NCBI GenBank assembly: GCA_041658745.1
Contig: JBAZZP010000003.1
Span: 3,811 to 67,810 of the forward strand
Direction of reading: 5' to 3'
Origin: Candidatus Margulisiibacteriota bacterium
GTDB lineage: Bacteria; Margulisbacteria; WOR-1; O2-12-FULL-45-9
Length of the DNA stretch: 64,000 nt
A program made the position numbers and the translations under genes. Under the pieces are notes generated by a model. The model was not told where the DNA came from. It was given only the letters and a program-made list of their open reading frames with translations, and searched no databases. Shown here one piece after another: positions 5,395 to 59,207 of the stretch (positions are counted from its first letter, which is position 1; each line of letters starts with the position of its first letter).

Positions 5395-5447
5395 ATACGG
5401 GTTATCAGAAGATTAAGTAAATAATTTCAGTTATAGAGAGGTATATT

Positions 5448-12391: not shown

Positions 12392-12397
12392 AAAATA

Positions 12398-12406
12398 AGT
12401 ATAGCA
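12398..12406 (-). promoter_or_regulatory. Extended -10 box TGCTATACT, 6 nt upstream of the priA ATG (leaderless-type)
   Basis: The minus strand reads TGCTATACT-TATTTT-ATG. Confidence 0.5.
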
Positions 12407-12433
12407 GAGAACCTAAATGGGTTTATAGCTTGG

Positions 12434-13810
12434 CTATATTTTCTTTCCCCATTTTACAATATGATTGGCAGTCATCCCACCAGCTTGAGTAAATGCTCCA
12501 CCAATATAAACATTCCCGGAATTGTCACTAACAATAGTGTTAACTATCCCATTCACCCCAGCTCCTAGCTCTTGCCAAGCACTGCCATTCCATTTGGCTA
12601 TATAATTAGAAAGATTTCCCTCAGCAGAAGAAAAATTCCCACCGGCATACAATGTCCCATAGCTATCTACACACAGAGCATTTAAAGATGCATTAAAAGC
12701 CCCTCCAACTGCTTCCCAGGTGTTTACGTTCCACTCCAAAACATGGTGCGAAGCGCCACTATACGTTTCTACCCCGCCAGCATATACTTTGGAATTTGTT
12801 GTATCATAGGCCAAGGAAGTAATTCTATAAAAGTTACACGACATGGCTTCCCAAGTACTTTCATCCTCAACCCATTTAACAATCCTATTGCTGCTCAAAG
12901 ACCCCACATTATTAAACCAGCCCCCGAGATAAAGATTGTTAGCGCCATCTTCTGCCAAACTAAAAACAATTGAATCAACCCCTCCAATTCCACTCCAATT
13001 TGTCCCATCCCATTTAGCTATATTATTAACCGTATTTCCTTCAATCGTTGAAAAAAACCCTCCAACATATAATTTTGTATTTTTCATCAACAGGCAAAAA
13101 GTCGCTCCTGATTGCTGTTGCTCAATTCCTCCTCCCAAAGCCTGCCAACTAGATCCATTCCATTTGGCAATGTAATTTGCAGTATTTCCATCAGCCGTTG
13201 TGAAATATCCTCCCGCGTATACTAAACCATTAGGGTTATCACAGATAATAGAATTCACAACATTATTAAATCCGCTGCCCAAGGCTTCCCAAGTTTGCAG
13301 TAAAGCGCTCCATTTTGCTATTCGCGTGGCGCCAACCCCACCAGCAAAAGAAAAGCTACCTCCGGCATAAAGATTCCCCGAACTATCTCTCGCTATCGCA
13401 TTTACATCACCATTGGTCCCACTTCCGATGGCTTGCCACCAATAAAGATCATACCAATTATTAACGATGGGGCTATTTGATAAACCCGTTTTAATAGCAA
13501 TAGCCTTAACGGTTTTCGAGCTTTCAAGCGAGATGGGTTCGGTATAAAGGGTTGAGGAAGCAGAGGGAGCTGTCCCATCTAGCGTGTAATAAATCGAAGA
13601 CCCTGCTGTACTACATTCTAGGGTGACATAGGTACTATTAACCTCATATGAACCAGAACTTTGCGAAAAGCTTGGGGCAGCAACTTGAGGAAGAGTGGTT
13701 GTTGTCGTTGTGGGGGTAGAAATTGTTTGACCACAGCCTACTAACCATAAACAAACCATCGTTAATCCGCATATGACCAAAGCCGGAAAAATTGCATTTT
13801 TGTTATTCAT
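12434..13810 (-). CDS. Lipoprotein with a chitobiase/hexosaminidase-C-like Ig domain plus a 7-bladed beta-propeller repeat
   Basis: Lipobox 'LVGCG'. 'SSIYYTLDGTAPSASSTLYTEPISL...VKAIAI' domain. Seven ~48-aa repeats of '(V)N(A)I..D..GNLYAGG.F..A.G..AN.IAKWNGS.W..LG.G'. GGGGGGAAGG SD. Confidence 0.7.
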   Translation of the reverse strand: MNNKNAIFPALVICGLTMVCLWLVGCGQTISTPTTTTTTLPQVAAPSFSQSSGSYEVNSTYVTLECSTAGSSIYYTLDGTAPSASSTLYTEPISLESSKTVKAIAIKTGLSNSPIVNNWYDLYWWQAIGSGTNGDVNAIARDSSGNLYAGGSFSFAGGVGATRIAKWSALLQTWEALGSGFNNVVNSIICDNPNGLVYAGGYFTTADGNTANYIAKWNGSSWQALGGGIEQQQSGATFCLLMKNTKLYVGGFFSTIEGNTVNNIAKWDGTNWSGIGGVDSIVFSLAEDGANNLYLGGWFNNVGSLSSNRIVKWVEDESTWEAMSCNFYRITSLAYDTTNSKVYAGGVETYSGASHHVLEWNVNTWEAVGGAFNASLNALCVDSYGTLYAGGNFSSAEGNLSNYIAKWNGSAWQELGAGVNGIVNTIVSDNSGNVYIGGAFTQAGGMTANHIVKWGKKI

Positions 13811-20451: not shown

Positions 20452-21489
20452 ATGCCAGAACTTAGAAAAGACCCGGTTTCTGATAGATGGGTTGTAATCT
20501 CGAGTGAACGCGGCCGGAGGCCATCTGATTTTGGCGCAGTTTCTGTTGCCGAAGAATCCGCCGGAGTAAAATTTTGTCCCTTCGATGAAGGCAACGAGGC
20601 CAAAACCCCACCCGAAATTACCGCCTGGCGAAAACCCGGCACTCTGCCCAATTCCGCCGGCTGGGATGTTCGCGTAATTCCTAATAAATTTCCAGCTTTA
20701 ATCATTGAAGGAGAAGTAAATCGCACCGGCATTGGTTTTTTTGATATGATGAGCGGAATTGGAGCCCACGAAGTAATTGTCGAAACTCCCAACCACAACT
20801 TATGCATTCCGGACATGGAAGATTCTCAAGTCGAAAAGATCTTATGGGCTTATAAACAAAGACTACTCGACCTAGAAAAAGATACCCGCTTTCGCTATAT
20901 CTTGGTTTTCAAAAATTATGGGACAGCCGCAGGCGCTTCTCTCACCCATCCCCATTCCCAACTAATTGCTACTCCCATCACACCACGCTACGTTAAGCTT
21001 GAATTATCCAATTCACGCGCTTATTTTCGCGAAAAAGAACGCTGCATCTTTTGTGATATCATCCGGCAAGAATTGGGAGCCGGCGTTCGCTTAGTCTATG
21101 AAAATGAATATTTTGTGGTTATAGCTCCCTTTGCTTCACGCTTCCCGTTTGAAGTTTGGCTGCTTCCCCGCCACCACGAGCATGGTTTCCAAATTATGCC
21201 CGATGAAGAAAGATTATTACTCGCCCGCTGCTTAAAGGACATTTTAAAAAGACTTAAGAAAACATTAAATGATCCTCCCTACAATTTTGTGCTGCACACC
21301 GCTCCTAACCCCGTTCCTCGCCCAGGTAAACCCGACTATTGGGGAACCGTACAATACGACTTCCACTGGCATATCGAAATTATTCCACGTCTAACCAAAA
21401 TGGCCGGATTCGAATGGGGATCTGGTCTTTATATTAATCCGACCTCGCCGGAAGAGGCGGCCAAATATTTAAGGGAAGTGGAGATTTAA
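20452..21489 (+). CDS. Galactose-1-phosphate uridylyltransferase-like (GalT/HIT superfamily; possibly NDP-glucose phosphorylase)
   Basis: 'CPFDEGNE' zinc-site remnant, 'NKFPAL' and the 'SLTHPHSQLIATP' HxHxQ active site. AGGAGG SD. Confidence 0.85.
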   Translation: MPELRKDPVSDRWVVISSERGRRPSDFGAVSVAEESAGVKFCPFDEGNEAKTPPEITAWRKPGTLPNSAGWDVRVIPNKFPALIIEGEVNRTGIGFFDMMSGIGAHEVIVETPNHNLCIPDMEDSQVEKILWAYKQRLLDLEKDTRFRYILVFKNYGTAAGASLTHPHSQLIATPITPRYVKLELSNSRAYFREKERCIFCDIIRQELGAGVRLVYENEYFVVIAPFASRFPFEVWLLPRHHEHGFQIMPDEERLLLARCLKDILKRLKKTLNDPPYNFVLHTAPNPVPRPGKPDYWGTVQYDFHWHIEIIPRLTKMAGFEWGSGLYINPTSPEEAAKYLREVEI

Positions 21490-24126: not shown

Positions 24127-25794
24127 TTAATGCGCACATTGTTTCGCTTCCTGGTCTTGTTTGATTGCAATAGAAACAATTTCCGCATCATTTTGCAACG
24201 CGTCCGAAGCCCAACACAAAGCAATTCCGTGCTTTCCTACCGCCCATCTAACAAAGTTTCTATCCGCACGCAAAGCATCACTGGCATTACTCAATGCTTC
24301 GCCGCTCTGCAATATTGCAACTCTAACAATCTCCTTGTCTTCCCTAAAAGCATCATTAGCAAAAAATAAAGCAGCTCTTCCGTTAATTTTTGCAGCTTCC
24401 AAAATAATCTCCCTGTCCCATCCCATTGCTGGAACAAATCTCAGCGCCTCCACATCTTGCCTAACCGCAGCTAAAACAACCTGCCGATCTTGCCGCAAAT
24501 TCGGATCGGCATATTGTAGAGCCATTCCATTTTGTCGAACGGCAGCCAAAACAAGCTCCCTATTCGCTTTTAATTCGTCGCTTGCATAGGCTAACTTATA
24601 TCCATCTTTTCTTACATCATTAAATATCCTTCTTTTTTCTTCAATCGAGCGTTTCTCAATCGCACGAGAGACCACAGACACTTCCCTCTGCAATAGCATC
24701 ACATCTTTCTTGTCCAGATTTGCCTCCACAGCTGCGTCAGCTACGGCTGTAATGGCCCGGAACCTTAAATCTAAGTTTTCGATCGTTTTAGCAATCATTA
24801 GCGAATCATATAAAAACCTTTTTGCTTCGCTTTTGTCTAAGCTTGCTTCCGGGATTTCATCAACAATCTTCTCAATCGCAGATGCTTTTAATCCTGGATC
24901 AACCGTTGAGGCAAGCGATACTGCATCAGCAAATGATTTATTTTCAACCAACACTTCAATTATGAGCAATAATGCTTCTTTTTGTAATTGCGGATTAGGG
25001 AATTCAATAGGATCAACAATAATATTGTTGACAAACTCAATCGCTTCGCTCAGCTTGTTTGCATTTACCATTATTTTTATAATTTCAAATGCTATTTCTG
25101 GCTGTCTTTGAAAAAATAGTTCGATTTTCTTGGCCTCAGCTAAAGCGCTGTCCTGCGAGCAATGCTCCTCCATAGCAATTAACGCCTGGATTATACATTT
25201 TCTTTTTACTGGTACGTTAATAATATTTCTTGTAGCGCCCAGAGCTTGCACAAATAATCCTGCATCAATCATTGCCGTTATGATCTTACTCACAATTTTA
25301 GAATATGCGTCTCTATCAAAAATGCCTTTGTATCCATTGATCTCGTCAGCTACAGTCATTGCCTCAGAAAAGACTTTGGACAACATCTTAGCTTTTACAC
25401 CTTCTTTGGCCATTTCACAGGCAATTTTATTGATTGTATTTGATTTAGCTATAGGGTCTTTGATTTTGCGGGCAACTTCCAGCTGTAAATTCAAAATCTC
25501 TACTCGTTCTGCTTGAACTAATGAATACTTGCTCTTGAGAGCCGAATCTACATTTCCCAATTGTTGCAGATAATACTTGGCTTCGGCTCTAACTATTTTC
25601 CCGTCACTATTAATATCGGCCTCTTTTATGTACCCTTCATCGCGTTGAAGCCATTTTTCTTTGACATCTATCTCTCCGTCTCCATTCTTATCCTCAAACC
25701 CTAAAGCATCATACAATTCTTTTGTGCTTTGTGGGACTGTCGAAGTACGCGAACAAGATAATGGCAAAAAGGCAAGAGCAGCAATTAATAACAT
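24127..25794 (-). CDS. Lipoprotein with EF-hand-like loops, helical repeats and C-terminal DUF4116 repeats
   Basis: Lipobox 'LPLSCS'. 'DKNGDGEIDVKE' and 'DINSDGKIVRAE' Ca-binding-like loops. Five or more tandem copies of 'R.DREIVLAAV.QNG.AL.YA...LR.D'. Confidence 0.65.
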   Translation of the reverse strand: MLLIAALAFLPLSCSRTSTVPQSTKELYDALGFEDKNGDGEIDVKEKWLQRDEGYIKEADINSDGKIVRAEAKYYLQQLGNVDSALKSKYSLVQAERVEILNLQLEVARKIKDPIAKSNTINKIACEMAKEGVKAKMLSKVFSEAMTVADEINGYKGIFDRDAYSKIVSKIITAMIDAGLFVQALGATRNIINVPVKRKCIIQALIAMEEHCSQDSALAEAKKIELFFQRQPEIAFEIIKIMVNANKLSEAIEFVNNIIVDPIEFPNPQLQKEALLLIIEVLVENKSFADAVSLASTVDPGLKASAIEKIVDEIPEASLDKSEAKRFLYDSLMIAKTIENLDLRFRAITAVADAAVEANLDKKDVMLLQREVSVVSRAIEKRSIEEKRRIFNDVRKDGYKLAYASDELKANRELVLAAVRQNGMALQYADPNLRQDRQVVLAAVRQDVEALRFVPAMGWDREIILEAAKINGRAALFFANDAFREDKEIVRVAILQSGEALSNASDALRADRNFVRWAVGKHGIALCWASDALQNDAEIVSIAIKQDQEAKQCAH

Positions 25795-25902: not shown

Positions 25903-26535
25903 TTAAAAAGAAGCTTGAGGTGTCAGCGGGAAGTTATTGACACTAAATTCACCTTTTATGTTGTGATAGTAAGTATTTTTTCCGGTAAAGTCTCCAGCCA
26001 TGGTCAATTTATTTTTAACAATGGAAAGCTTCTTAACGTTAATAGTAAACTCTTCTCCCGCAAAAGTATCCAGATAGTTTCTCTCATTTACATATGTTCC
26101 TTTTTCAAGCAGCAATCCAACTATAGGGAATGAGGGGCTGTTGCGATAGTCGTTTCTGGTAAATACTAGGGGGAGAGGTTTATGGGCAACAGAATATGTG
26201 ACAGTTTTTCCTTTAGTCGTCGCAACCGTATTAATCTTATCAATGTTTAGCAAAGTTATAGTGAGAGCGTGCCTTCTTTCTTTATCGTTAAATATTAAGC
26301 CTAACCCGAAAGTATCGTTAGTATAAACAAATGCTTTTAAAAGTTTGAGTGAATATTTTTTGTCTTCAATTTTGGAACCGGCAGGCCATTCTATAAATGA
26401 AGGCGGCGGAGTAACCCCTTCAATTTTTGTTAGCTCAAATTGTGCCGAATTTATCAACACTGCACCAAAAGCCGGGGGAAAAGCAGCTCCATACAGTACA
26501 ATTAACAAAAGAATAAGTTTAAATTGTCTCTTCAT
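25903..26535 (-). CDS. Hypothetical secreted protein
   Basis: Start taken at 'MKRQFKLILLLIVLYGAAFPPAFG' (signal peptide). Co-directional with the DUF4116 gene. No recognisable domain. Confidence 0.5.
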   Translation of the reverse strand: MKRQFKLILLLIVLYGAAFPPAFGAVLINSAQFELTKIEGVTPPPSFIEWPAGSKIEDKKYSLKLLKAFVYTNDTFGLGLIFNDKERRHALTITLLNIDKINTVATTKGKTVTYSVAHKPLPLVFTRNDYRNSPSFPIVGLLLEKGTYVNERNYLDTFAGEEFTINVKKLSIVKNKLTMAGDFTGKNTYYHNIKGEFSVNNFPLTPQASF

Positions 26536-26650
26536 TCGCCCCCCCCTTATTCGCATTTTCACATATTATTCCATCTTTTACCGGTTTGAATAGTATATCT
26601 CATACGTTAATTAAATAAAACAATAATTGGTTTTTTTACTCCCCTATCTG

Positions 26651-40200: not shown

Positions 40201-40725
40201 ATGAAAAGATGGTTAATTGTTTTGCTAACTTTCCTTTGTTTTTGGACTGCAACACAAAGTTATGCTTTAGATAAAGAGACCGAAAACTTTAAAGCTACCA
40301 TTGATCAATTACAACTCGCCCTAGTTTTTGCCGACATGGATTATGTTAACAAGCATCTTGCCCTCGACAGTATTTTACGCGCCAAGATTAAGAAGTTTTC
40401 TGGATTGGTACAAAAACAAAGCGGCTTTTGGAAAGGGACGGCTGCAAGAATAGTGGGAGCAGGAGATTCTGCCCTCGCCAAAACTGCATCATCGTTTATA
40501 ATGAGCCAATACAGCAAATCTCCCAAATCACTCCGCAAATCATATAAAAAAAGCCTTTCACTGACAAATTATTCGGTAAAGGGAGACCTAGGGATTGCTT
40601 CTGGTTCGTTTATGGGCAAATCCGCCTCCATTGCCGCTAAAAAAATCAATGGTGAATGGGTGGTCGTTTCAGCCGAAAGCCCGGTGATTGACGCCGAATT
40701 GAAGAAAATACTAAAGCTAAAGTAA
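40201..40725 (+). CDS. Hypothetical secreted protein
   Basis: Signal peptide 'MKRWLIVLLTFLCFWTATQSYA'. AGGAG SD. No recognised domain. Confidence 0.5.
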   Translation: MKRWLIVLLTFLCFWTATQSYALDKETENFKATIDQLQLALVFADMDYVNKHLALDSILRAKIKKFSGLVQKQSGFWKGTAARIVGAGDSALAKTASSFIMSQYSKSPKSLRKSYKKSLSLTNYSVKGDLGIASGSFMGKSASIAAKKINGEWVVVSAESPVIDAELKKILKLK

Positions 40726-42062: not shown

Positions 42063-42132
42063 CTCCGAGCGAACTTGTACCGAGAGACATCGAGGTAGTC
42101 GAGGAGCTATCTACTTTCTAAATAGAATAACA

Positions 42133-42557
42133 TGGAGCTGAGGGGAGTCGAACCCCTGTCCGAAAAGGCAATTCCACCAGCCGCTACGAGCGTAGCTTTG
42201 ATTAAGTTTTCGTCCAGGAGTTGACCCAAAGCGGGGTTTTTCCCGGCCTATCCCCAATTTTGTTTTCCATCCTAGCCTTGAGAAACAACCAGGACAGTAG
42301 CCGTTAAAATAACGTCTTTATCTGGACCTAACAGCAAATCCAGGAGACGGGTCGCTTAATAAATTAAGCGGCGACTGCCGCTGCAACAGGTTGTACTGTG
42401 CACAGAGCTAAAAGCTGCTGTACTGTTCTTCCTGCTACTTTGGCGATTTGACTATCTGCATTTACAGATTTGCCACCTTTTTTAACGAGGTTATAGATGA
42501 CGTCCTCGGCTCGCAACTGATGCAACCACAACTTCCCGTCAATACCCTTACAGCCCC
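42133..42557 (-). ncRNA. ssrA: Transfer-messenger RNA (tmRNA, SsrA)
   Basis: The minus strand reads 5'-GGGGCTGTAAGGG...GGACAGGGGTTCGACTCCCCTCAGCTCCA-3'. The acceptor stem is GGGGCUG/CAGCUCC with a G3:U pair, followed by a T-arm and discriminator A. CCA is not encoded. The internal ORF ends ...PVAAAVAA-TAA. Confidence 0.9.
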
Positions 42558-42613: not shown

Positions 42614-43075
42614 CTATTTGAACTCTTTTATGGTTTCATTAAACATGGTCAACATGCTTTCGGCTTGTTCAGGACCCATGCGCTCTAAGAGCTCGGCAAA
42701 TTGTTGCCAGTCTTCGGCTTCTTCCATTAAGTCCTTATTGTCCTTAATCTTTTGCAGTTCGGTTTCGATTTCTTCTTGCAGTTGTTTAGAGGCCGCTTGC
42801 ATCGCCGCTTCCGGTTCTTTAAGTCCGGTTAAAGTGATCACCTCATCAAGGATACGTTTGAATTCATCCGCCGAGATTTCTTTTTTCTTGGCTTCAGTTG
42901 CCAGGGCACTTAAGCGCACCGCAATCGCATTGGCATCGAGTTCAGGACCGCGTCCAATCGATGACATTGCCTGCTGCGGACGAGAAGATTGTTGCTCGGT
43001 TTTTTCAGCTTCCTTGCTGCCTTCTTTGGGATTGATTTGGGGAACAAACGGCTTATCGCCTGGTACTCGCATCAT
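42614..43075 (-). CDS. Hypothetical acidic helical protein (153 aa)
   Basis: AAGGAG SD upstream. ATGA-type overlap with the preceding small ORF. Lies between smpB and ssrA. No recognised motif. Confidence 0.5.
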   Translation of the reverse strand: MMRVPGDKPFVPQINPKEGSKEAEKTEQQSSRPQQAMSSIGRGPELDANAIAVRLSALATEAKKKEISADEFKRILDEVITLTGLKEPEAAMQAASKQLQEEIETELQKIKDNKDLMEEAEDWQQFAELLERMGPEQAESMLTMFNETIKEFK

Positions 43076-43254
43076 ACTAATTTCATCTCCTTCAGAACCA
43101 TTTTTGATAGAGCTTTGGCCAGCTCATCCATTTTGGCCTCTTCGCTGGGAGAAATCCCACCTTTAATCTCTTTTACTTCTTTTTTTAATAGGAGTGCGGC
43201 CTCTTTATAGACATCGCCCACCGTAAACTTTCGATCTTCAACCTTTCCCAGCAT
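43072..43254 (-). CDS. Hypothetical small charged protein (60 aa)
   Basis: The ATG at 43254 is preceded by GAGGAGAAAGGA. The longer ORF-track version (to 43326) uses TTG and overlaps smpB by 89 nt, so I prefer the shorter one. Confidence 0.4.
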   Translation of the reverse strand: MLGKVEDRKFTVGDVYKEAALLLKKEVKEIKGGISPSEEAKMDELAKALSKMVLKEMKLV

Positions 43255-43711
43255 TCCTTTCTCCTCTAAAAGCTCTTTCAATTTCTCTTTCAGACTCTCT
43301 ACGTTTAATTTTATCACGTTTTTCAAACACCTTCTTGGCTTTTGCTAGAGCCAAATCAACCTTCGCCCAGTCCCCTGCAAAGTATAGCTTAAGTGGCACC
43401 AAGGTTAAACCTTTTTCGGCCACTTTGCCGGATAATTTCACCAACTCATTTTTCTGAACCAAGGCTTTGCGAGGCCGGGTAGGATTAGTTTTGGAAATAT
43501 CGGTAGTTTGATAAGGAGTGATATGAATTCCGTACAGCCAAACCTCGCCTTTTTCAATTCGTCCAAAACTATCTTGTAAATTAACCCGTCCGAGACGTAC
43601 CGCCTTGACTTCATTACCAGTTAATACCAAGCCAACCTTAAATACTTCTAGAATTGTATAATCAAAACGAGCTTTGCGATTTTCCGCTATTACTTTATAA
43701 TACGCGGACAT
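43238..43711 (-). CDS. smpB: SsrA-binding protein
   Basis: 'IAENRKARFDYTILEVFKVGLVLTGNEVKAVR' and 'LVPLKLYF' motifs plus a basic C-terminal tail. Confidence 0.95.
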   Translation of the reverse strand: MSAYYKVIAENRKARFDYTILEVFKVGLVLTGNEVKAVRLGRVNLQDSFGRIEKGEVWLYGIHITPYQTTDISKTNPTRPRKALVQKNELVKLSGKVAEKGLTLVPLKLYFAGDWAKVDLALAKAKKVFEKRDKIKRRESEREIERAFRGERNAGKG

Positions 43712-48117: not shown

Positions 48118-48756
48118 TTAAAAACTTGGTATAGTGGGCAAGGTGGTATCGTTATAGGGCGTTAAGACCAAATTAACAATTTTACTCTCACCGGCAACCA
48201 AAGTGGCTTCGCTAGAGGCGGAATAATAATAAGAGGATGAAGTATAGACATGATACGTCCCAGCGGGAACATTAGAAATCGAATAATTTCCACCGGATGT
48301 TGAATAAGTTTCAAGGGCCGTTCCTTGAATCAGAACCTGTACACCAGAAAGGAGTTGTCCGGTGGTTGAACTAACAATTCCGGTAATCCAGCCATTAGAG
48401 GTAATGGTAACCGTTGCCGTTGCCGTAAGACCCTCAGCGCTAGCAATCACCGTCCCTGAGCCGGCCGAAGCTCCTGCCATTAACAAACAAGTAGAACCAT
48501 TGGTGGTAAGAGTACCAATCCCTCCGCTCACACTCCAGGTAGGAGTTACAGTTACAATTTGCCCAACAGAATTGTGTCCATAGACTGTAAAGGTTTGGCT
48601 TTGATTAACCCCTACCGTGGCACTAGTGGGAGAAAGGGAAATACTGGTTAGACTTCCGGGAGCATCACCGCAGCCCGTGTAACAAATTGCTAACAGCAAA
48701 CAGCTTACAGCAACAATGCAACTGGCCGTTAGCCGTAGGCCGTTAGCTCTTAGCAT
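48118..48756 (-). CDS. Lipoprotein with Big_2-like Ig domain and carboxypeptidase-regulatory-like domain
   Basis: Lipobox 'YTGCG', 'ISLSPTSATVGVNQSQTFTV...TVTIT' (Big_2-like) and 'GIVSSTTGQLLSGVQVLI...GNYSISNVPAGTYHV'. The longer track ORF overlaps pyrC. Confidence 0.6.
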   Translation of the reverse strand: MLRANGLRLTASCIVAVSCLLLAICYTGCGDAPGSLTSISLSPTSATVGVNQSQTFTVYGHNSVGQIVTVTPTWSVSGGIGTLTTNGSTCLLMAGASAGSGTVIASAEGLTATATVTITSNGWITGIVSSTTGQLLSGVQVLIQGTALETYSTSGGNYSISNVPAGTYHVYTSSSYYYSASSEATLVAGESKIVNLVLTPYNDTTLPTIPSF

Positions 48757-48761
48757 AAACT

Positions 48762-50051
48762 TTAACCAACCAACTTCCCGTCCCTCACCACAACTCTCCC
48801 CCCAACTATCGTCCACAAGACCTTGCCCTTCAGCTTCCATCCATCAAAAGGAGTATTTTTACTCTTTGAAGCTAATTTGGTTGCATCAACCGTCCATTCA
48901 GCTGACGGGTCAACAATGATAACATCAGCATCCCAGCCGGTTTTTAAACAGCCCTTATTTAAGCGCAATATCTTGGCTGGATTAACGGCCAATTTTTCAA
49001 TTGCCTTCTGGAGGGTTAAAGCCTTGGTGCTGATTAATTTGGTAAAGGTTAAAGCTAGCGCCGTTTCCAGACCAATCATGCCGGAGGACGCCAAATTAAA
49101 TTCCAACGCTTTTTCCTCAATATTATGCGGGGCATGATCAGTCGCGATAACATCAATTGTGCCGTCAGACAATCCTTTGATAATGGCTTTGACATCTAGG
49201 GCAGTTTTGAGTGGGGGATTAACTTTAGCATTAGTATTATATTGCCGCACAGCTTCTTCGGTTAAACTAAAATAGTGAGGAGCGGTTTCACAAGTTATCA
49301 CTACTCCTCTTTTTTTGGCCTGGCGAATTAATTCTACTGAACGCGCCGAAGATACATGGGCAATATGTACCCTGCCATATTTTTCGGCCATCAAGATATC
49401 ACGGGCAACCATTATTTCTTCTGAAAGTGACGGAATACCGGGAAGACCGATTTGGGTAGAAACAGACCCCTCATTCATTGATCCCCCGCTCGACAGATTG
49501 GTATCTTCGCAATGAGAGATAATAGGGACATCAAATTGGCTGGCATACTCGAGGGCTTTGCGCATCACATCCGCCCGCATAATGGCTTTTCCATCGTCCG
49601 AGAAAGCTACCGCACCTTGCTCAAGCATTAATCCCATTTCGGCTAAAACTTCACCTTTTAGCCCCTTCGTTACCGAACCAATCGGAAAGACATTGACTAC
49701 GCCTTCGCTTTCAGCTTTGGAGCAGATAAATTTAATTACGGCTAAGTTATCCGCCGGTGGTTCAGTATTAGCCATACAACAAACCGAAGTAAATCCACCC
49801 AAAGCCGCCGCCCGTGTCCCGGTTGCAATCGTTTCTTTATCTGGCCGGCCCGGATCGCGCAAGTGGGTATGCATATCAATTAATCCTGGCAGTACCAACA
49901 TTCCTTTGGCATCAATCGTTTTACTCCCTGACCCCTGCATCCTATTCCCTATCTTTTTTATCTTCCCATCTTCAATTAATACATCGCAAACTTGGTCGAA
50001 GTTACTGGCTGGATCAACCACCCGCCCGTTCTTAATTAATAATTTTGCCAT
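48762..50051 (-). CDS. pyrC: Dihydroorotase
   Basis: 'LPGLIDMHTHLRDPG', 'VHIAHVSS' and 'IATDHAPH' amidohydrolase motifs. Confidence 0.93.
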   Translation of the reverse strand: MAKLLIKNGRVVDPASNFDQVCDVLIEDGKIKKIGNRMQGSGSKTIDAKGMLVLPGLIDMHTHLRDPGRPDKETIATGTRAAALGGFTSVCCMANTEPPADNLAVIKFICSKAESEGVVNVFPIGSVTKGLKGEVLAEMGLMLEQGAVAFSDDGKAIMRADVMRKALEYASQFDVPIISHCEDTNLSSGGSMNEGSVSTQIGLPGIPSLSEEIMVARDILMAEKYGRVHIAHVSSARSVELIRQAKKRGVVITCETAPHYFSLTEEAVRQYNTNAKVNPPLKTALDVKAIIKGLSDGTIDVIATDHAPHNIEEKALEFNLASSGMIGLETALALTFTKLISTKALTLQKAIEKLAVNPAKILRLNKGCLKTGWDADVIIVDPSAEWTVDATKLASKSKNTPFDGWKLKGKVLWTIVGGRVVVRDGKLVG

Positions 50052-51819: not shown

Positions 51820-53078
51820 GCCCTTCCGCTAAAACCTGCGCTGAAAAAATTCTCTCTGCCCACTCTGGCAAAGATGCCAAAGCCGGCGATATTGTTATCG
51901 CTAATTTAGATTATTTGATTGGCCAAGACGGAACCTCCGGCGTAGCCATTGATTCCTTTAACAAGCTAGGGGTTAGCAAGGTTTTTGATCCATCCAAAAT
52001 TGCCATTATCATTGACCATAGCTCCCCTTCCCCCAATCTGGGAGTTTCAGCCATTCACAAAAAAATCCGCGATTTTGCGGCCGCGCAAGGCTTTAAGCTG
52101 TATGACATTGGTTGTGGAGTGTGTCATCAAATTACCCCCGAGCAAGGGCATGCCGTACCAGGCGATCTGATCATTGGCGCTGATTCACACACCTGTACTT
52201 ACGGAGCAATTAATGTTTTTTCCACCGGAATTGGATCCACCGATCTAGCAGCTGGCTGGGCATCTGGCAAACTATGGTTTAAAGTGCCCGAGACAATTAA
52301 AGTTACTTATTCTGGCAAATTACCCAAAGGTATCTATTCAAAAGATTTAATTTTAAAATTAATCGGCGACATTACCGCCGACGGTGCAACCTACATGGCA
52401 CTCGAAATTGGCGGACAAGCAATTCTAGATCTTTCGGTAGATGCACGCTTTACTATTTCCAATATGGCCATTGAATGTGGCGCCAAAATCGGGATTATGC
52501 CGGCCGATAAAAAAGTGCTGGAATGGGTGGGGCAACATTCTAAACGTAAACCGCAACCGGTGGAAGCCGATCCAGGCGCAACCTATGCCAAAACTCTCGA
52601 AATTGATGTCGCCAAATTAGAGCCCCAAATTGCCAAACCGCATCAAGTAGATAATGTTTGCCCAATTTCACAAATTGGCGAAGTGCCCATCCAACAAGGA
52701 TTTATTGGGACTTGTACTAATGGGCGGCTAGAAGATTTTCAAATTGCAGCTAAGATTTTAAAAGGCAAAAAAGTAAAAGATGGTTGCCGCCTAGTTATTG
52801 CTCCAGCTTCCAAAACCATTATGCTGGATATGATTAAAGACGGTACTTTTCAAACCTTGGTAGAAGCCGGCGCCGTTCCAGTTACTCCAGGCTGTGGCCC
52901 CTGCGTAGGAACCCATAATGGAGTTCCATCGGATGGTGAAAATGTGATTTCAACGGCCAATCGCAACTTTAAAGGACGAATGGGCAATCCCAATTCGTTT
53001 ATCTATTTATCTTCGCCAGCTACCGTAGCCGCTTCTGTACTTGCAGGTAAAATTACCGACCCTCGCCAGTATTTGTAA
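51816..53078 (+). CDS. leuC: Aconitase-family dehydratase large subunit (3-isopropylmalate/homoaconitate dehydratase, ~420-aa type)
   Basis: 'IDHSSPSP', 'GADSHTCTYGA', 'GTCTNGRLED' and 'PGCGPCVG' Fe-S cluster-ligand motifs. The LeuC versus HacA assignment cannot be settled by eye. Confidence 0.88.
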   Translation: MSPSAKTCAEKILSAHSGKDAKAGDIVIANLDYLIGQDGTSGVAIDSFNKLGVSKVFDPSKIAIIIDHSSPSPNLGVSAIHKKIRDFAAAQGFKLYDIGCGVCHQITPEQGHAVPGDLIIGADSHTCTYGAINVFSTGIGSTDLAAGWASGKLWFKVPETIKVTYSGKLPKGIYSKDLILKLIGDITADGATYMALEIGGQAILDLSVDARFTISNMAIECGAKIGIMPADKKVLEWVGQHSKRKPQPVEADPGATYAKTLEIDVAKLEPQIAKPHQVDNVCPISQIGEVPIQQGFIGTCTNGRLEDFQIAAKILKGKKVKDGCRLVIAPASKTIMLDMIKDGTFQTLVEAGAVPVTPGCGPCVGTHNGVPSDGENVISTANRNFKGRMGNPNSFIYLSSPATVAASVLAGKITDPRQYL

Positions 53079-53582
53079 TTATGCCCTAAGGTCTACTAGT
53101 AATAGTATATGAAACATATTATCTGGTGGAGACCAGCTATATTCGCTAACCATGGGTCTAATCCCTTCAGGTCTATTGCTATTGCTAAGAATTTGCACCC
53201 CGTCAGGTCTCGCCCACTCTCCTTGAGCCTTTGCTTTTAGCCATGCTCGGGCAGCCGTTAATAATGTTGGGTCTGATATCTCGGTTTCTTTATTTTTGCC
53301 AGAGCGCTCAATATTTGCACAAACCAACGCTTTGCCAGTTGCTTCATTAAATCGCACGGTTACTGTACGCAGCCTAATTGATATTCCCTTTTCCCCAGCT
53401 GCAAGTTTTTCGCCCGATGTTTGCACTTGCATTAAATGTGCTTCTAACCGACTAACCTTGGCATCTCTAGCTGCACTTTGCGCAGCTGATATCCCTTGTC
53501 CTTCTCTTCCTTGAGTCCCTGATTTCCTCCCGACTAGATTATCTATTCTAGAACATCCTCTTCGTCCAATTACGACACTCAT
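53079..53582 (-). CDS. Orphan hypothetical protein (167 aa)
   Basis: AAAAGGAGAAAAGAAAG precedes the ATG at 53582. Lies 70 nt downstream of, and co-directional with, the 1377-aa orphan. No recognised motif. Confidence 0.45.
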   Translation of the reverse strand: MSVVIGRRGCSRIDNLVGRKSGTQGREGQGISAAQSAARDAKVSRLEAHLMQVQTSGEKLAAGEKGISIRLRTVTVRFNEATGKALVCANIERSGKNKETEISDPTLLTAARAWLKAKAQGEWARPDGVQILSNSNRPEGIRPMVSEYSWSPPDNMFHILLLVDLRA

Positions 53583-53652
53583 CTTTCTTTTCTCCTTTTC
53601 TTTAATTTTTCTTTACAAGTTTATATCACAACTATTTTAAAATAATTTCAGT

Positions 53653-56600
53653 TTATTTTTTTATTGTGGGACTAGTAACCCCATACTTTATTTTAAGTGC
53701 TCTTTGAGCTTGTGGATCCATTTCTTTAATAAAAGTCGATTGTGGATCAATAAATGTTCTCCCCACCGGTAAAACACAAAGCGACATCCCTGTAATTGGT
53801 ATGTTTGCCAAAGCATTTCTCCTCTCGGCATCTTCAACCTGACCTAACTCATCCGGTATCCTTCCAGCCGCCAACCCATTTTGCCACTCCCTAATGGCGG
53901 CTTGAACCGTTTCCTGGGCAACTAATTCCTTTGCTAATGCCTCTGGAACCGATGGATGGAATAGTAATCCTATATTAAGATCCCTACTAGAAACTACAAA
54001 ATCTCTTTCGAGTAAAGCCCTTTTACTTATTTGAGCTGGAACAATTACTCCCGGCCTTATCACTGACAATCTGCGCCAAATACGCCCTTCCCCTTCTCCA
54101 AAATGGGTGGCCACAAAAACGGCTGCACCAGCAGTTAAATCTAATCCCATTCTTACTGCAGCGCTTAATTTGCCAGAATCAGCTTCCTTCGGTTGCAGTT
54201 GTACTCCATTGCTACTGCCATTGCTAAAATAGGGTGGCAAATTAACCGGTATGGGAGGGCGAACAACAATTTGAACATCAGCATAATAATCTCTCAACAT
54301 TGCCATTTTTTCTTCCGGTGTACTCGCTACCCGATAAATTCCACTCCTTTGTCTTATAAAAAACAGGGCATTTACAGGAATCTTTCCGGCTGCGATGGCT
54401 GTTTCCATTGTCCTGAGGGCCAATTGGGGAATTGCCTCTCTAAAAGTTGGCGCAACCTTCCTGGCCGTTAGCTCGGGAGCTAAAGCCGCAAAAGCTTTTG
54501 TAGAAAGAGAACCATCACTGGCTTCTGTGGATCGTGCCCAATCACCAATAATCCCCTTCCAGTCTTCCGGACCCGGATGCTGTATTGCCCGATGCAAACA
54601 AGCCAGAGCCGGTATAGCTCCCACCCCAATTGCTTGCAAAGCAACTTCTAGTAAATTATCTACAAATTCATCTTCTACTTCCCCTGCTCTAAATCCAAGA
54701 ATATCAGCCGTGGCTGCTTGTAAATCTAATACAAAAAAGACATCATTTTTCCCCTCACCAGTTAAACATAAACGGATCAACAATCGGCCCTTTTCGTCAA
54801 GCTTTAATGCAGTAACTTTTTCTGGGATTAATCCCCAAGCTGTTAGGCTTTTTGTTGCCGTCCCTGCATTAAGAACCACAACATCAGCAACAATTCCATC
54901 AAGATTTTGGGTGGTTGCGGCACTAAAAGAGCGGCCCACAATATCGCGGCGTCTTAAATAATCCAACAAATACCTTGCCAAATCATTTACCGCCACTTTT
55001 CTTGCCTCGCTGCCACCTTTATAGTCAATTCTTTTCTCCATTACTCGCAGTAGAAGAGTTTCGAAACGATCACGAACTGCCCTTAAAAATTTAGTCTCTG
55101 GATCAACTTCAACTGTAGGGGCAACTTCAAGCGGAGCTGTAGCCGCTTTCTTTGATCCAGAAAGAGGAGCAGAAATGACTTTAGTTACTGGCGGCTGCCA
55201 AACTGGAGGGGAGACAAAGCGTGCTGCCGGTGCTGGCTTTGAGACTGGCGCAGATCTTGTCACCGGTTTGGCTGGCTCTTTCTGTAAAGCATCACTAACT
55301 AAATCATATTGTCCAACTTCATTTTCTAATTCAGCTAATATGGTTTCAAGAATAGCGGCATTTAAGAAACAATGGATTGCCCATTCAGTCGTTCCTCCCC
55401 TTCCTGGGACTGGAAATTGGAGAGAACTTGCTGTCCAGGCAAGTGGAATTTCAAAATATCTCTCATCTTCCATAGTTAAACGGACAACCAGTCTTCTTTG
55501 TAGACCGCGGCCACCATTGGCTTCTTCCGTTGCAGTAATTGAAACTTCTCGAATTCCAAACGATTGGATGGCTGCTTCCACGGCAGCTGAAAAACCCAAA
55601 ACCGTTCTGCTTCCCTGGTAGCGAGAAAATGCGGCATCAAAGCTTTCTGTTTGAATTGCAACTTCAAAATCTTGACCAGCACTATAAAGTGCGTTTTGTC
55701 TAGCGTCATAAACTGCGCCTTCGCCTAAAATTCGAGCAACCAGTGAGCTCGCTCTTCTTAAAAAATTATCTCTACATAAGTTCATCGCGATTATGAGGGA
55801 TTCTTTTTCTTTGGCTGCAGCGGCGTTTGCTTCAGCTACTATTTTAGCTGCGGCGGCTAATGCTGCTGCGGCAGCTTTTTTTTCATCTTTTTCTACTCTA
55901 TCAATCCTACGATCGATATGGCTCATTAATTCCTCTGCTAATTTTCTTTCATTACAAATAATGGGAAAGCAATGCCCTGGTTTTATCAAAGTTTCTTCAC
56001 CGGCAGGTCGAACTGCCAGGGCCAAACCAATTGCCTCTTTGGCTCCTCGTAATTGTCCAGCATCCGCTAATAATTGAGATCGCGTAAAATGATAATAAAA
56101 TGGATCAACCCCAACAGGAACTTCTATCATTCCGGCCAAAGCATCCTCTGGTTTGGCTTGTTCGGCTCTCACTAAAAACAAAGCTCGCAACGGTCGGCGG
56201 GCTTCCCATTCCGAGATCCTCACCCCAAGCGAAAAAGTTTCTCCTCGTCCAAAGGCTTCCCCAACTACTTGGGCTGCATCAGCCGCTTGAGCCGCTACAT
56301 TGCGAACGTTTATTCCCCGAAAATATGTCGCGGCAAAACAAACAAAAGCGAGATAACGCAAGACTAATTGCCGAGAAGGATTCGTGGCAAAAGCAGGAAT
56401 GGCCTCCTGAAGAGGAGTAGAACTAATTTGTGGCTTGCCAACAGCGATGCAGGCTTCAACCACAGCTAAGAATAAACCGTGTTGATCTACTTCTTTTAGG
56501 TTAGAAAATTGGGCATGGCATTTAAGTGCTCGCAATCCCCAGGTCAAAACTTCCTTATGATCATTTTTCTCTTGTAGTTCACCAATTATCCGCAACGCCC

Positions 56601-57786
56601 AGTTTTGTAATGCTTTGGCTGTGCTTTCATCCATAGAAGCCTTGGCATCAGCAACCATGTTGAATGTTCTTTTTGCGTTTTCAATATCACCGGAAGCAAG
56701 ATAAAACTGGAAAATCAAAATCAAAGACATCTCTTCCCTAGAACTAAGGGAAGCGAGATGCTTAGCAGAAAAAAGACTTTTGAATTCCGTCAGGCGACCA
56801 AATATTCTTAGTGCTTCAAAATCGGCAGGGCTCAAATCATTTTCATCGCGAGTTGCCAACATAGTATTAAATCTATCATCCGCTTCTGCCCTTGTCAGGG
56901 TACGAGCAGCAATTGCCCTAACCGCCAGAGAATAGCGCTCTTGTGAGGCTTGTGCCATGTGCATAAAATCTTCCGCTTCCGGAGATCTCCCATCACCAAA
57001 CAACTCGCCACACAAACGGCGCTCTTCTCCAATCTGCAGCTCATAATATACCGACGTAGCCGGCCACAGAGTTAACAATGCGCCACCTTCCAAGGCAACA
57101 GAAAATTGGTTTTTCCCTCTTGCTAGTAGCAGAGAGAGCCAATTTCTATCTGACAAGATACACAAACTATCCATTAACTCCATCCAAAGGCTAAAGGGCA
57201 GCGGATTAATAGAAAGAGCCCTGGCAGCAATTCTTAATATTTCAATTTTGGCAAGTTGATAATTTTGAGAACTTGTCGTTTCGGCTTGAGCGTTTTCTGA
57301 CAAATTATTTCCACAAATAGAAGCCATAAGCAGTACTCCAGTCAACTGTTCACTCAAGCAAGAAAGATAGGGAAACAAAAATTGGTCTTCCGAAACATCC
57401 TCGCTTTTCCCGCTAAGAATTAAATATAGGAGCCGACAAAAGATTGGATAAAAATTAGCTGGATCTTTGCGGCAAGCTTCTTGGGAGAGCTCGTCCGCAT
57501 TTTTAAAATCTCCGCGATGGCAAGATAACATACTTAGGTCAGCTATCTGCACCGCCAAAAGATCCTCGCCAGCATTGTAGCGCTCCATCAACTGAACAAG
57601 ACGAGCCGAAGCAATAATTAATTTATCATGCAAATCAACAATTCTGGGATGGGCAGGAGCAGCCATAAAGAGCCTCTCACCAACTGCAAAACGCAATCTC
57701 GCCGATGTTCGAGCACGATCCATGGAAAGCGGCATTGCTTGACCGAGCACCGCCCTCCCTTGTCCAGGCAATATAGTGGATGACAT
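53653..57786 (-). CDS. Orphan giant protein (1377 aa), Ala/Leu/Arg-rich, no recognised domain
   Basis: Uninterrupted 4.1-kb ORF. GCTAGGAGAATTT precedes the ATG. Lies 56 nt downstream of radA on the same strand. Helical-repeat-like N-half, a poly-Ala segment 'KKAAAAALAAAAKIVAEANAAAAKEKE' and a Pro-rich linker 'KEPAKPVTRSAPVSKPAPAARFVSPPVWQPPVTK'. Confidence 0.7.
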   Translation of the reverse strand: MSSTILPGQGRAVLGQAMPLSMDRARTSARLRFAVGERLFMAAPAHPRIVDLHDKLIIASARLVQLMERYNAGEDLLAVQIADLSMLSCHRGDFKNADELSQEACRKDPANFYPIFCRLLYLILSGKSEDVSEDQFLFPYLSCLSEQLTGVLLMASICGNNLSENAQAETTSSQNYQLAKIEILRIAARALSINPLPFSLWMELMDSLCILSDRNWLSLLLARGKNQFSVALEGGALLTLWPATSVYYELQIGEERRLCGELFGDGRSPEAEDFMHMAQASQERYSLAVRAIAARTLTRAEADDRFNTMLATRDENDLSPADFEALRIFGRLTEFKSLFSAKHLASLSSREEMSLILIFQFYLASGDIENAKRTFNMVADAKASMDESTAKALQNWALRIIGELQEKNDHKEVLTWGLRALKCHAQFSNLKEVDQHGLFLAVVEACIAVGKPQISSTPLQEAIPAFATNPSRQLVLRYLAFVCFAATYFRGINVRNVAAQAADAAQVVGEAFGRGETFSLGVRISEWEARRPLRALFLVRAEQAKPEDALAGMIEVPVGVDPFYYHFTRSQLLADAGQLRGAKEAIGLALAVRPAGEETLIKPGHCFPIICNERKLAEELMSHIDRRIDRVEKDEKKAAAAALAAAAKIVAEANAAAAKEKESLIIAMNLCRDNFLRRASSLVARILGEGAVYDARQNALYSAGQDFEVAIQTESFDAAFSRYQGSRTVLGFSAAVEAAIQSFGIREVSITATEEANGGRGLQRRLVVRLTMEDERYFEIPLAWTASSLQFPVPGRGGTTEWAIHCFLNAAILETILAELENEVGQYDLVSDALQKEPAKPVTRSAPVSKPAPAARFVSPPVWQPPVTKVISAPLSGSKKAATAPLEVAPTVEVDPETKFLRAVRDRFETLLLRVMEKRIDYKGGSEARKVAVNDLARYLLDYLRRRDIVGRSFSAATTQNLDGIVADVVVLNAGTATKSLTAWGLIPEKVTALKLDEKGRLLIRLCLTGEGKNDVFFVLDLQAATADILGFRAGEVEDEFVDNLLEVALQAIGVGAIPALACLHRAIQHPGPEDWKGIIGDWARSTEASDGSLSTKAFAALAPELTARKVAPTFREAIPQLALRTMETAIAAGKIPVNALFFIRQRSGIYRVASTPEEKMAMLRDYYADVQIVVRPPIPVNLPPYFSNGSSNGVQLQPKEADSGKLSAAVRMGLDLTAGAAVFVATHFGEGEGRIWRRLSVIRPGVIVPAQISKRALLERDFVVSSRDLNIGLLFHPSVPEALAKELVAQETVQAAIREWQNGLAAGRIPDELGQVEDAERRNALANIPITGMSLCVLPVGRTFIDPQSTFIKEMDPQAQRALKIKYGVTSPTIKK

Positions 57787-57842
57787 AAAATTCTCCTAGC
57801 GTAATTGAACTATCTCATTATCGGCAGGAAAAAAAGAAAATT

Positions 57843-59207
57843 TCAGTTTTGCAGGGCTTCTTGGATCGATCGAACCGCTATAATTTGAATTTTAATTTTG
57901 TTTACTGACTTATTATTAGCCTTCGGTATAATCGCTTTTTTAAAGCCCAATTTCTCAGCTTCTTTCAATCGCTGTTCAATTTGGCTGACCGAGCGGACTT
58001 CGCCGGTTAATCCTACCTCACCAATCACCAAACAATCCGGTTCAATTGGTTTATTTTTGTAGCAAGAAGCAATGGCTAAAGCCATCGGTAAGTCCATGGC
58101 GGGTTCTGTCACTTTAACCCCACCCGCTGCATTCACAAAAACATCCGCGGTAGATAATTTTAAACCTAACTGCCGCTCCAGTACCGCAATTACAATCGAG
58201 AGGCGGTTGAAATCAACCCCAGAGGCCTTACGCGTGGGATAAACCATCTTCGTAGGAGCCACCAACGCTTGAATTTCAACCAGCAATGGTCGCGTACCTT
58301 CTATCGCAGCCGTAACGACTGAACCGGAAGCATCTTTGGGCCGCTCAGATAAAAACACTTCTGAAGGATTGGGAACTTCAACTAACCCCTGCTCTTTCAT
58401 TTCAAAAATGCCAACTTCATTAGTTGAGCCAAAACGGTTTTTCTCGGCCCGCAGGATCCTGAACTGCTTATGTCTTTCGCCTTCAAAATAGAGGACAACG
58501 TCAACCATGTGTTCTAAAATTCTAGGCCCAGCAATGTTGCCTTCTTTGGTAACGTGGCCAACGATAAAAATAGGGATACCGCTTGATTTAGCAATGCCCA
58601 CCAGGTAATTGGCGCATTCTCTGACTTGTGATACCGAACCAGCAGCAGAAGATACATCTTCGCGAAACATAGTTTGGATCGAATCAATAATTAGATATTT
58701 GGGGTTACTATCACTGACGGCTTTTTCAATGGCAAACAGGTTTGTTTCGGGAAAGAGGAGCAAATTTTTCGACAGAGTTCCTAATCTTTCGGCTCGCAGG
58801 CGGATTTGCCGCGCCGATTCCTCTCCGCTTACATATAATACCTTGGAAGCTTTGCTCAAAGCTTCCGCTACTTGGAGGAGCATGGTTGACTTTCCAATCC
58901 CCGGCTCCCCTGACACCAAAACTACTGATCCAGCAACAATCCCACCGCCTAACACTCGATCAATTTCAGCAATGCCCGTTTCCGCCCTACTTTCATCATT
59001 GTAGTTAACATCGACAATTGATATCGGCTTTTCCGTTTGTATCTTGGAATTTGAATTTTGTAATTTATTTATAACTTGTGTCTTGTTACTTGTAACTTTC
59101 TCCTCGGTGAGACTATTCCACTCCCCACACGATTGGCACTGCCCACTCCAACCTGGAAAATCTTGCCCGCAAGATTGGCACACGAAGATAGTTTCTGATT
59201 TGCTCAT
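57843..59207 (-). CDS. radA: DNA repair protein RadA (Sms)
   Basis: N-terminal 'CQSCGQDFPGWSGQCQSCGEW' zinc finger, 'VSGEPGIGKSTMLLQ' Walker A, a 'KNRFG' motif and a Lon-like C-terminal domain. Confidence 0.95.
   Translation of the reverse strand: MSKSETIFVCQSCGQDFPGWSGQCQSCGEWNSLTEEKVTSNKTQVINKLQNSNSKIQTEKPISIVDVNYNDESRAETGIAEIDRVLGGGIVAGSVVLVSGEPGIGKSTMLLQVAEALSKASKVLYVSGEESARQIRLRAERLGTLSKNLLLFPETNLFAIEKAVSDSNPKYLIIDSIQTMFREDVSSAAGSVSQVRECANYLVGIAKSSGIPIFIVGHVTKEGNIAGPRILEHMVDVVLYFEGERHKQFRILRAEKNRFGSTNEVGIFEMKEQGLVEVPNPSEVFLSERPKDASGSVVTAAIEGTRPLLVEIQALVAPTKMVYPTRKASGVDFNRLSIVIAVLERQLGLKLSTADVFVNAAGGVKVTEPAMDLPMALAIASCYKNKPIEPDCLVIGEVGLTGEVRSVSQIEQRLKEAEKLGFKKAIIPKANNKSVNKIKIQIIAVRSIQEALQN
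59036..59098 (+). repeat. CTTGTNN-family element inside radA
   Basis: tttgtatcttggaatttgaattttgtaatttatttataa + cttgtgt|cttgtta|cttgtaa|cttt. Encodes 'TSNKTQVINKLQNSNSKIQT' in the linker after the zinc finger. Confidence 0.85.

Follow-up and report, generated by a model that had tools for sequence, protein, structure and literature searches.

In Bacillus the operon ctsR-mcsAB-clpC-radA-disA places disA, and other genes, after radA. A pair of genes is found at a comparable place, on the same strand as clpC-radA, in a 64,000-nt stretch of DNA from Candidatus Margulisiibacteriota bacterium (GenBank assembly GCA_041658745.1, contig JBAZZP010000003.1, positions 3,811 to 67,810 of the forward strand; this whole stretch is called the window below), and these two genes, referred to here as BIG (1377 aa) and SMALL (167 aa), together with a promoter-like element that lies upstream of each, are the subject of this analysis. 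Although the pair is like disA in position and strand relative to clpC-radA, it carries neither a diadenylate cyclase (DAC) nor any other known domain and its position is not conserved even within the phylum. Scaffolds built of tetratricopeptide (TPR) or pentatricopeptide (PPR) repeats, such as the Rap/NprR-type receptors and the PPR proteins, resemble BIG in that its N-terminal ~630 aa are predicted to be all-helical, that its only fold-level matches are to PPR, TPR and Rap proteins and that both known family members give sub-threshold matches to TPR_2, but BIG has no significant profile match, its C-terminal 700 aa have no counterpart there, and it lacks the helix-turn-helix (HTH) or phosphatase parts of RRNPP receptors. 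STAND/Avs-like TPR sensors and defence islands share with the locus a large repeat protein, a variable slot and a raised substitution rate, but BIG has no P-loop NTPase, effector domain or PADLOC match. Unlike the ClpC adaptors (MecA, McsB, YpbH), the pair is absent from the clpC-radA loci of four relatives of the same phylum (L003, L004, L006 and L010), and unlike polymorphic toxin-immunity pairs (variable C-terminal toxin, immunity gene downstream), BIG is most conserved at its C-terminus and its distant homologue P0005 has no SMALL homologue downstream. The accessory genes of sigma-28 (FliA/SigD/WhiG) regulons are similar in the GCCGATAA octamer (8/8 at BIG), in its spacing and in the unrelated, lineage-specific genes lying behind it, but the -35 box of the pair, ACTGAAATT, differs from TCTAAAG.

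The reading that we prefer, tentatively and at a probability of about 0.42, sees the pair as an accessory insertion restricted to one lineage, with alternative-sigma-type promoters of its own and a function unrelated to clpC-radA. On this proposal the two genes would have entered, in one Saganbacteria clade, a slot of variable content that separates radA from the convergent leuC-like gene, and each would be transcribed from its own promoter, in the register expected for sigma-28/FliA, the same element also driving other lineage-specific genes of the phylum. BIG would be a scaffold made up of a ~630-aa helical-repeat half followed by alpha/beta modules joined by low-complexity linkers, and SMALL, whose small alpha/beta core follows a basic disordered tail, would be a clade-specific add-on which may bind BIG.

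Both genes are real coding genes. BIG lies at 53653..57786 (-), stop codon included, and is supported by its open reading frame (ORF) and by P0005; SMALL lies at 53079..53582 (-) and is supported by its ORF and by two homologues, P0003 and P0004. When the sequence was re-read both ORFs were as the original prediction gave them, each with a Shine-Dalgarno site (AGGAG at 57793..57797 (-), 6 nt 5' of the ATG at 57786, for BIG; AAGGAG at 53592..53597 (-), 9 nt 5' of the ATG at 53582, for SMALL), and BIG follows the radA stop codon (57845-57843) after a gap of 56 nt, as had also been stated. The chance probability of a 1377-codon open frame in the window is ~1e-31. An Ala/Leu/Arg-rich composition setting BIG apart from its neighbours had been noted, and z-scores over 45 window genes bear out a contrast for both genes: Ala+Arg+Gly+Pro is high (+2.3 for BIG, +2.7 for SMALL), as is Arg/(Arg+Lys) (+2.0 and +1.9), and GC content at third codon positions (GC3) is among the lowest (-1.7 and -2.3) while that at second positions (GC2) is high. 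The contrast is real, yet subtle, total GC being ordinary (0.445). No terminator was predicted in the radA-BIG spacer, and terminator-like matches within the poly-Ala region of BIG were discarded as artefacts of its GCN repeats. At the other end, the SMALL stop codon (53079-53081) abuts that of the convergent leuC-like gene (53076-53078) with a 0-nt spacer, an arrangement shared by the related contig L081, so that there is no room for a terminator on either strand.

By all the libraries and searches used both proteins are genuine orphans, and the lack of homology claimed in the original prediction held under sensitive profile and sequence searches, which assigned neither protein to a known family. 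Pfam, NCBIfam, PADLOC and PHROGs gave nothing consistent for the whole proteins or for five domain pieces of both family members; PADLOC returned 0 families for either protein at E<=1, and single-sequence and profile searches of PDB sequences gave only noise. Neither ClpC-adaptor domains (MecA, McsB ATP:guanido phosphotransferase) nor a DisA-type DAC domain was found in BIG or SMALL with Pfam and NCBIfam. Nothing but the query came back from a word-indexed search of 5.8 billion clusters with the BIG sequence and profile, and scans of metagenome contigs (two) and of viral contigs (two) were empty, as was tblastn against phages and plasmids. It was an exhaustive HMMER scan of 1.84 billion representatives, made with BIG residues 178-1377, that gave one true distant homologue, P0005, a protein of 1397 aa with 25-27% identity to BIG (E=4e-75) that is colinear with it from residue 19 to 1370 and keeps low-complexity linkers at both of BIG's linker positions. 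A further candidate, P0006, was rejected as a eukaryotic SRCR-repeat protein that matches only a 'GEGEG(R/K)IW' string. Four loci in all, among ~15 billion predicted proteins, were seen to carry the BIG family. Large orphan proteins are common in candidate phyla, and the judgement that nothing known is close at the family level concerns placement by sequence and implies no mechanism. A protein kept intact and colinear over 75% sequence divergence, with no known domain, is truly dark matter at the family level.

The architecture of BIG was considered with the help of AlphaFold models of BIG residues 178-1377 (2-sequence alignment) and of SMALL (3 sequences). With only two or three sequences per alignment these models are poor (predicted local distance difference test score, pLDDT, 38.4 and 44.5, respectively) and they were used for secondary-structure content alone. 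Residues 1-634 (55885..57786 (-)) are predicted to form an all-helical, TPR/PPR-like repeat half, assigned by DSSP as all helix in the low-confidence AF2 model, in which helix continues to about residue 720 and is followed by helix/three-strand/helix modules split by an unstructured segment of ~60 aa. A poly-Ala low-complexity helix or linker (aa 635-660, 55807..55884 (-)), seen in the sequence, is replaced in P0005 by a different, Lys/Ala/Pro-rich linker. A middle alpha/beta module follows (aa 661-835, 55282..55806 (-); predicted helix, three strands and long helix), which had no Pfam match when scanned alone, and then a Pro-rich unstructured linker (aa 836-894, 55105..55281 (-); 12 Pro in 60 aa, no secondary structure modelled) that has a Pro-rich counterpart at the same position in P0005. 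The poly-Ala and Pro-rich stretches were present as originally quoted, the quoted poly-Ala stretch corresponding to aa 636-662 and the quoted Pro-rich one to aa 836-869. The C-terminal alpha/beta region (aa 895-1377, 53656..55104 (-)) contains the best-conserved stretch of the family, aa 1301-1350, which is 42% identical to P0005 and within which W1301, PDEL (1311-1314), RR (1322-1323) and TF-DP (1344-1348) are invariant. SMALL consists of a basic, Gly/Arg-rich N-terminal 50 aa (net charge +5 over the first 50 aa, which bears out the basic N-terminus originally reported) and an alpha/beta core; its model has a disordered tail, then a long helix, a beta-hairpin and a helix.

Foldseek searches of the PDB and BFVD with both models gave nothing at E<=0.001. 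The top PDB matches of the BIG helical half, made with the pLDDT-38 model, were to designer PPR, TPR and Rap proteins (E>=0.018, TM 0.1-0.31), and matches in the viral structure library (BFVD) were noise. The Pfam family TPR_2 matched BIG below threshold (E=0.23; 12 bits, the cutoff being 27) and also P0005 (E=0.056); a search for internal repeats in BIG found none. The possibility that SMALL duplicates a module of BIG as a separate protein was considered and rejected (hhalign E=0.44; best pairwise E=0.08, at positions inconsistent between BIG and P0005). BIG had been described as free of a list of catalytic motifs, and regular-expression scans upheld this for Walker A/B, HExxH, HxxEH, DEAD, HD and PD-(D/E)xK, with no CxxC either; GxSxG has a single example (GSSNG at 1190), which is not conserved, and P0005 too has no Walker A or B. 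BIG had also been described as having no transmembrane segment, and its only hydrophobic peak (KD19 1.83, at 1045) has no hydrophobic counterpart in P0005, so that no conserved transmembrane segment is evident. Judging from the predicted helices and from the absence of catalytic and NTPase motifs, BIG is probably a soluble, non-enzymatic helical-repeat scaffold or binding protein.

The genomic setting bears directly on any connection with clpC-radA. The adjoining genes are housekeeping genes (clpC, radA, a leuC-like gene of the aconitase family, a TPR protein gene, rnc, pyrC and proA), and the window contains farther away valS, priA, recA, TamB, tmRNA and SmpB. RadA relatives, at 63-74% identity, assign the window to Saganbacteria/Margulisbacteria (WOR-1), and the order clpC-radA ... 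leuC-like-TPR-rnc-pyrC is kept in the four relatives named above. The cargo between radA and the leuC-like gene is different in each: the two stop codons abut with no insert in L010, a 192-aa ORF of no known family lies there in L003, genes for an ECF sigma factor and an LTXXQ protein in L004, and a 441-aa ORF of no known family in L006 (slot at 11301-12675 (+)). Searching 80 radA loci by tblastn with both proteins revealed no trace of the pair. As the cargo between the convergent radA and leuC-like genes differs in this way, the pair sits in a variable slot and its placement is that of an accessory. A second kind of variable cargo is a Fic homologue (35% identical to the Fic gene described below) inserted between clpC and radA in L010 (8897-9817 (+)).

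Close relatives of SMALL were found on two contigs (P0003, 84% identity; P0004, 72%), and on both contigs (L081 and L082) the gene upstream, which is cut by the contig end, is the C-terminus of BIG (74-78% identity over 204-228 aa). L081 keeps the order of the window, with BIG and SMALL followed by the leuC-like gene (convergent), TPR, rnc and pyrC. The length of 117 aa at which SMALL appears in L081 is due to a run of N in the scaffold and is an artefact; the N-terminus, basic and Gly/Arg-rich, is present there, although divergent. In the contig that carries P0005 (L083, same phylum) the P0005 gene follows directly after priA, on the same strand and at a distance of 58 nt; this priA is 63% identical to that of the window, which is followed by convergent genes and not by any BIG-like gene. 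None of the neighbours of P0005 in L083 resembles SMALL. Past P0005 there is a Fic-domain plus winged-HTH gene (L083 5682-6707 (+)) with its own sigma-70-like promoter and then rlmN (6724-7690 (+)), where two overlapping ORFs (RlmN_N, 147 aa, and Radical_SAM, 182 aa) apparently take the place of one, as a frameshift, a pseudogene or an assembly error could explain. The original prediction had asked whether the pair is conserved, always together and always beside radA; it is conserved in L081 and L082, with order and site unchanged, but P0005 follows priA and lacks a SMALL relative beside it. On the sequences available the pair co-occurs within one narrow clade and not at depth.

These observations argue against the pair being a functional extension of the clpC-radA operon, co-transcribed with it as disA is placed after radA and acting, for example, in recombination or with ClpC (as its adaptor or substrate). 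Such an arrangement would account for the shared strand, the 56-nt gap and the absence of a predicted terminator, and P0005 likewise follows a gene of DNA transactions, priA, at 58 nt, a suggestive coincidence which consists of two cases only. However, relatives with intact clpC-radA lack the pair at the slot, P0005 is not near clpC or radA, no MecA-, McsB- or DisA-type domain is present, each gene of the pair has its own conserved promoter-like element and, as described below, the evolutionary rates of the pair are fully decoupled from those of its neighbours. We regard this explanation as very improbable, and the operon or functional link to clpC-radA proposed in the original prediction is not supported, given the other or missing cargo in the relatives, the position of P0005 after priA and the separate promoter-like elements. 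The pair may yet be an undescribed system, as was originally suggested. Guilt by association is corrected here, in that a place after clpC-radA does not imply a shared function.

Evolutionary rates were compared between the window and L081, a near-conspecific contig. The leuC-like, TPR, rnc and pyrC proteins are 95-99% identical with dN/dS 0.02-0.065 and dS 0.38-0.45, and the C-terminus of BIG is 78% and SMALL 72% identical, with dN/dS 0.29-0.44 and dS 0.38-0.55. For the BIG C-terminus dN/dS is 0.37 between the window and L081 and 0.41-0.44 for the other two pairs, with Z(pS-pN) of 3.5-4.2; for SMALL it is 0.29-0.57, and dS for the two is 0.15-0.55. The pair thus evolves fast, change at the protein level being 10-20 times faster than in the neighbours, but its dS is similar to that of the flanks, in favour of vertical descent together with them and against allele replacement. 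No stops or frameshifts occur in the three available BIG C-termini at dS ~0.4. From these rates the pair appears to be maintained under a constraint that is purifying but weak, or partly diversifying.

Two further explanations have to be weighed against these rates. The genes might be passengers under relaxed constraint, once functional or horizontally acquired and now drifting towards loss, which would fit a dN/dS 10-20 times that of the neighbours, a low GC3 such as is expected of weakly expressed genes and the extreme rarity of the family (four loci among the ~15 billion proteins). This is improbable in our view, because the 4.1-kb frame is intact and the three C-termini are free of stops and frameshifts at dS ~0.4, pN is significantly below pS, the architecture has been kept over 75% sequence divergence and conservation is higher in the upstream element than in the coding DNA. 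Alternatively the pair might be a conflict system (anti-phage defence, counter-defence, toxin-antitoxin or toxin-immunity) in which the helical repeats act as a fast-evolving sensor and SMALL as a modulator. The variable slot, the patchy distribution, the raised dN/dS and the atypical codon composition could all be understood in this way, as could the Fic/HTH gene beside P0005 and the Fic homologue between clpC and radA in L010. This too is unlikely, as there are no matches in PADLOC, PHROGs or phage, plasmid and viral-contig sequences and none of the motifs of an effector, be it an NTPase, a nuclease or another; the pair and its flanks have equal dS, which points to vertical descent rather than allele swapping, conservation is highest at the C-terminus, opposite to what polymorphic toxins show, P0005 has no SMALL partner beside it and the Fic gene has its own sigma-70-like promoter.

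The preferred reading of an accessory insertion with promoters of its own draws in part on the element found upstream of both genes. The radA-BIG, BIG-SMALL and (in L083) priA-P0005 spacers each contain ACTGAAATT followed by GATA at a fixed distance, and the layout of the element is an invariant ACTGAAATT at the -35 position, N15 and then nnCGATAw at -10. Upstream of BIG it occupies 57817..57849 (-) (26.1 bits), with ACTGAAATT at 57847-57839, a 15-nt spacer after CTGAAA and GCCGATAA at 57825-57818, and the radA stop codon falls inside it. Upstream of SMALL it occupies 53621..53654 (-) (28.4 bits), with ACTGAAATT at 53652-53644, right after the BIG stop codon, and TGTGATAT at 53630-53623. A third copy in the window (5401..5432 (-), 26.2 bits) lies after valS and 5' of a gene for a 303-aa alpha/beta-hydrolase-like protein (4483-5394 (-)). 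Exact matches to CTGAAATT-N16-GATA occur in the window only at these three genes, allowing one mismatch adds none, and among 83 loci exact matches are found only in L081, L082 and L083, at homologous genes. The element is conserved: a 35-nt block that contains it upstream of SMALL is identical in the window, L081 and L082, where the surrounding DNA is ~82% identical.

The 303-aa protein matches Abhydrolase_6 (E=7e-8) and a PHROG esterase/lipase (E=5e-6) and forms a singleton cluster; its nucleophile elbow reads GHGRGG, without Ser. Its gene has the lowest GC3 in the window and an ACTGAAATT...GATAA element at 7 nt from the ATG (leaderless-like), and the three element-bearing window genes share the lowest or near-lowest GC3 and favour Arg over Lys.

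A sequence-only model of the element was built from eight copies, which themselves score 24-29 bits. With it further sites were located in L007 and L003 (18 bits) and, at ~12 bits, in L012, L003 (upstream of the slot ORF) and L006; across 1.08 Mb of control loci from Firmicutes the highest score was 11.5 bits. In L007 (12047-12350 (+)) and L012 (9713-10075 (+)) the element precedes genes for orthologous Cys-rich proteins of 88 and 82 aa (47% identity, E=3e-20, motif C-x-FYK-x3-CNP...C-x-KC), 0.7-1.5 kb downstream of radA in two other Saganbacteria lineages, and it is thus conserved at orthologues across lineages. Slightly different copies follow immediately after the radA stop codon in L006 and a phosphoesterase stop codon in L010, each upstream of an unrelated ORF; in L006 this is the 441-aa slot ORF, preceded by TAAACTGAAATT. 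The L010 example (20997-21350 (+)) has CTGAAA-N14-CCCGATAA right after the stop codon of the metallophosphoesterase-like gene, then GGAGG and an ORF (MVVLGRTVRV...) that continues past the end of the fetched L010 sequence. At the 18-bit site in L003 (18390-18548 (-)) the element is followed by a leader of ~155 nt with a strong hairpin (GGGAACGT...ACGTTCCC) and then a 301-aa gene; to judge from its sequence this leader may be a regulatory RNA or an attenuator.

As the element often begins at or just after a stop codon (radA, BIG, the L010 phosphoesterase, L006 radA) and unrelated cargo genes lie behind it at different loci, it might be a recombination or attachment site at the 3' ends of housekeeping genes, the genes being mobile cassettes and the element no promoter. 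We give this little credence: there is no recombinase or transposase nearby, there are no flanking repeats and no copy 3' of SMALL, the two boxes with their fixed spacing and fixed distance to leaderless ATGs fit a promoter, and the element is conserved before orthologous genes in L007 and L012.

Read as a promoter, the element can be set beside the consensus of sigma-28, with TCTAAAG at -35 (-36 to -30) and GCCGATAA at -10 (-15 to -8) (PMC12784957). The spacing in the element (GAAA-N15-octamer) is that of sigma-28, and the octamer matches GCCGATAA at 8/8 positions for BIG, 7/8 for the L010 gene and 6/8 for both P0005 and the 303-aa gene. At four genes the distance from the end of the octamer to the ATG is 7-9 nt, which puts the ATG where transcription from a sigma-28 promoter is expected to start, so that these messages would be leaderless; leaders of 31-41 nt with Shine-Dalgarno sites precede BIG and SMALL as well as the genes in L010 and in the L003 slot. 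Flagellins and FlgV, which is co-conserved with sigma-28, have been reported from Margulisbacteria (PMC7018530, PMC11607428), which makes a FliA-type sigma factor plausible in the phylum. We infer that the element is a promoter read by a sigma-28-type sigma factor.

Several points weigh against the preferred reading. The octamer of SMALL matches GCCGATAA at only 4-5/8, the -35 box ACTGAAATT matches TCTAAAG in its AAA core only, no FliA or flagellar gene was seen in the 64-kb window or in the fetched loci, and instead of a promoter the element might represent an operator, a signal acting at the RNA level or the footprint of recombination. The scaffold role of BIG is an argument from absence, and since both models are of low confidence (pLDDT 38 and 44) a hidden enzymatic fold may be present. 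A dN/dS of 0.3-0.45 also fits genes drifting towards loss, and the comparison of BIG with its close relatives covers the last ~230 aa only. With regard to the sigma factor itself, none was found among 20 less obvious window genes (Pfam) or in the end regions read by eye, and a search for flagellin in the DNA of the window and the fetched loci gave no match.

If the inferred promoter is real, it ties the pair to a small set of lineage-specific genes, so that one sigma factor and one motif could be searched for, and a search with the motif in complete Saganbacteria/Margulisbacteria genomes could reveal the cellular programme to which these orphans belong. A bolder possibility, which we consider a long shot, is that BIG founds a new family with new folds and that, with SMALL, the 303-aa pseudo-hydrolase, the Cys-rich proteins of 82-88 aa and the other slot ORFs, it belongs to an unseen sigma-28-like regulon of almost wholly phylum-specific proteins, which might for instance build an apparatus, specific to Saganbacteria, for motility, attachment or development, with BIG as structural scaffold.

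Some features elsewhere in the window should also be noted. An Rfam search of the window found only the tmRNA (RF00023, 148.6 bits), which lies close to SmpB (42130-42557 (-) and 43238-43711 (-) for the two). Between them is a 182-aa ORF (42618-43166 (+)) of odd composition (GC2 0.57) and with no Pfam match, which may not be a real gene. A Ser/Thr/Gly-rich ORF of 240 aa (48118-48840 (-)) overlaps the end of pyrC by 79 nt; its L081 orthologue, which contains CarboxypepD_reg domains, is called at only 212 aa, so that translation probably begins downstream of the start given here. No Pfam family matched three other window ORFs (8941-10401 (+), 486 aa; 25903-26562 (-), 219 aa; 40201-40725 (+), 174 aa), and a DUF4116-repeat protein of 555 aa is encoded at 24127-25794 (-).

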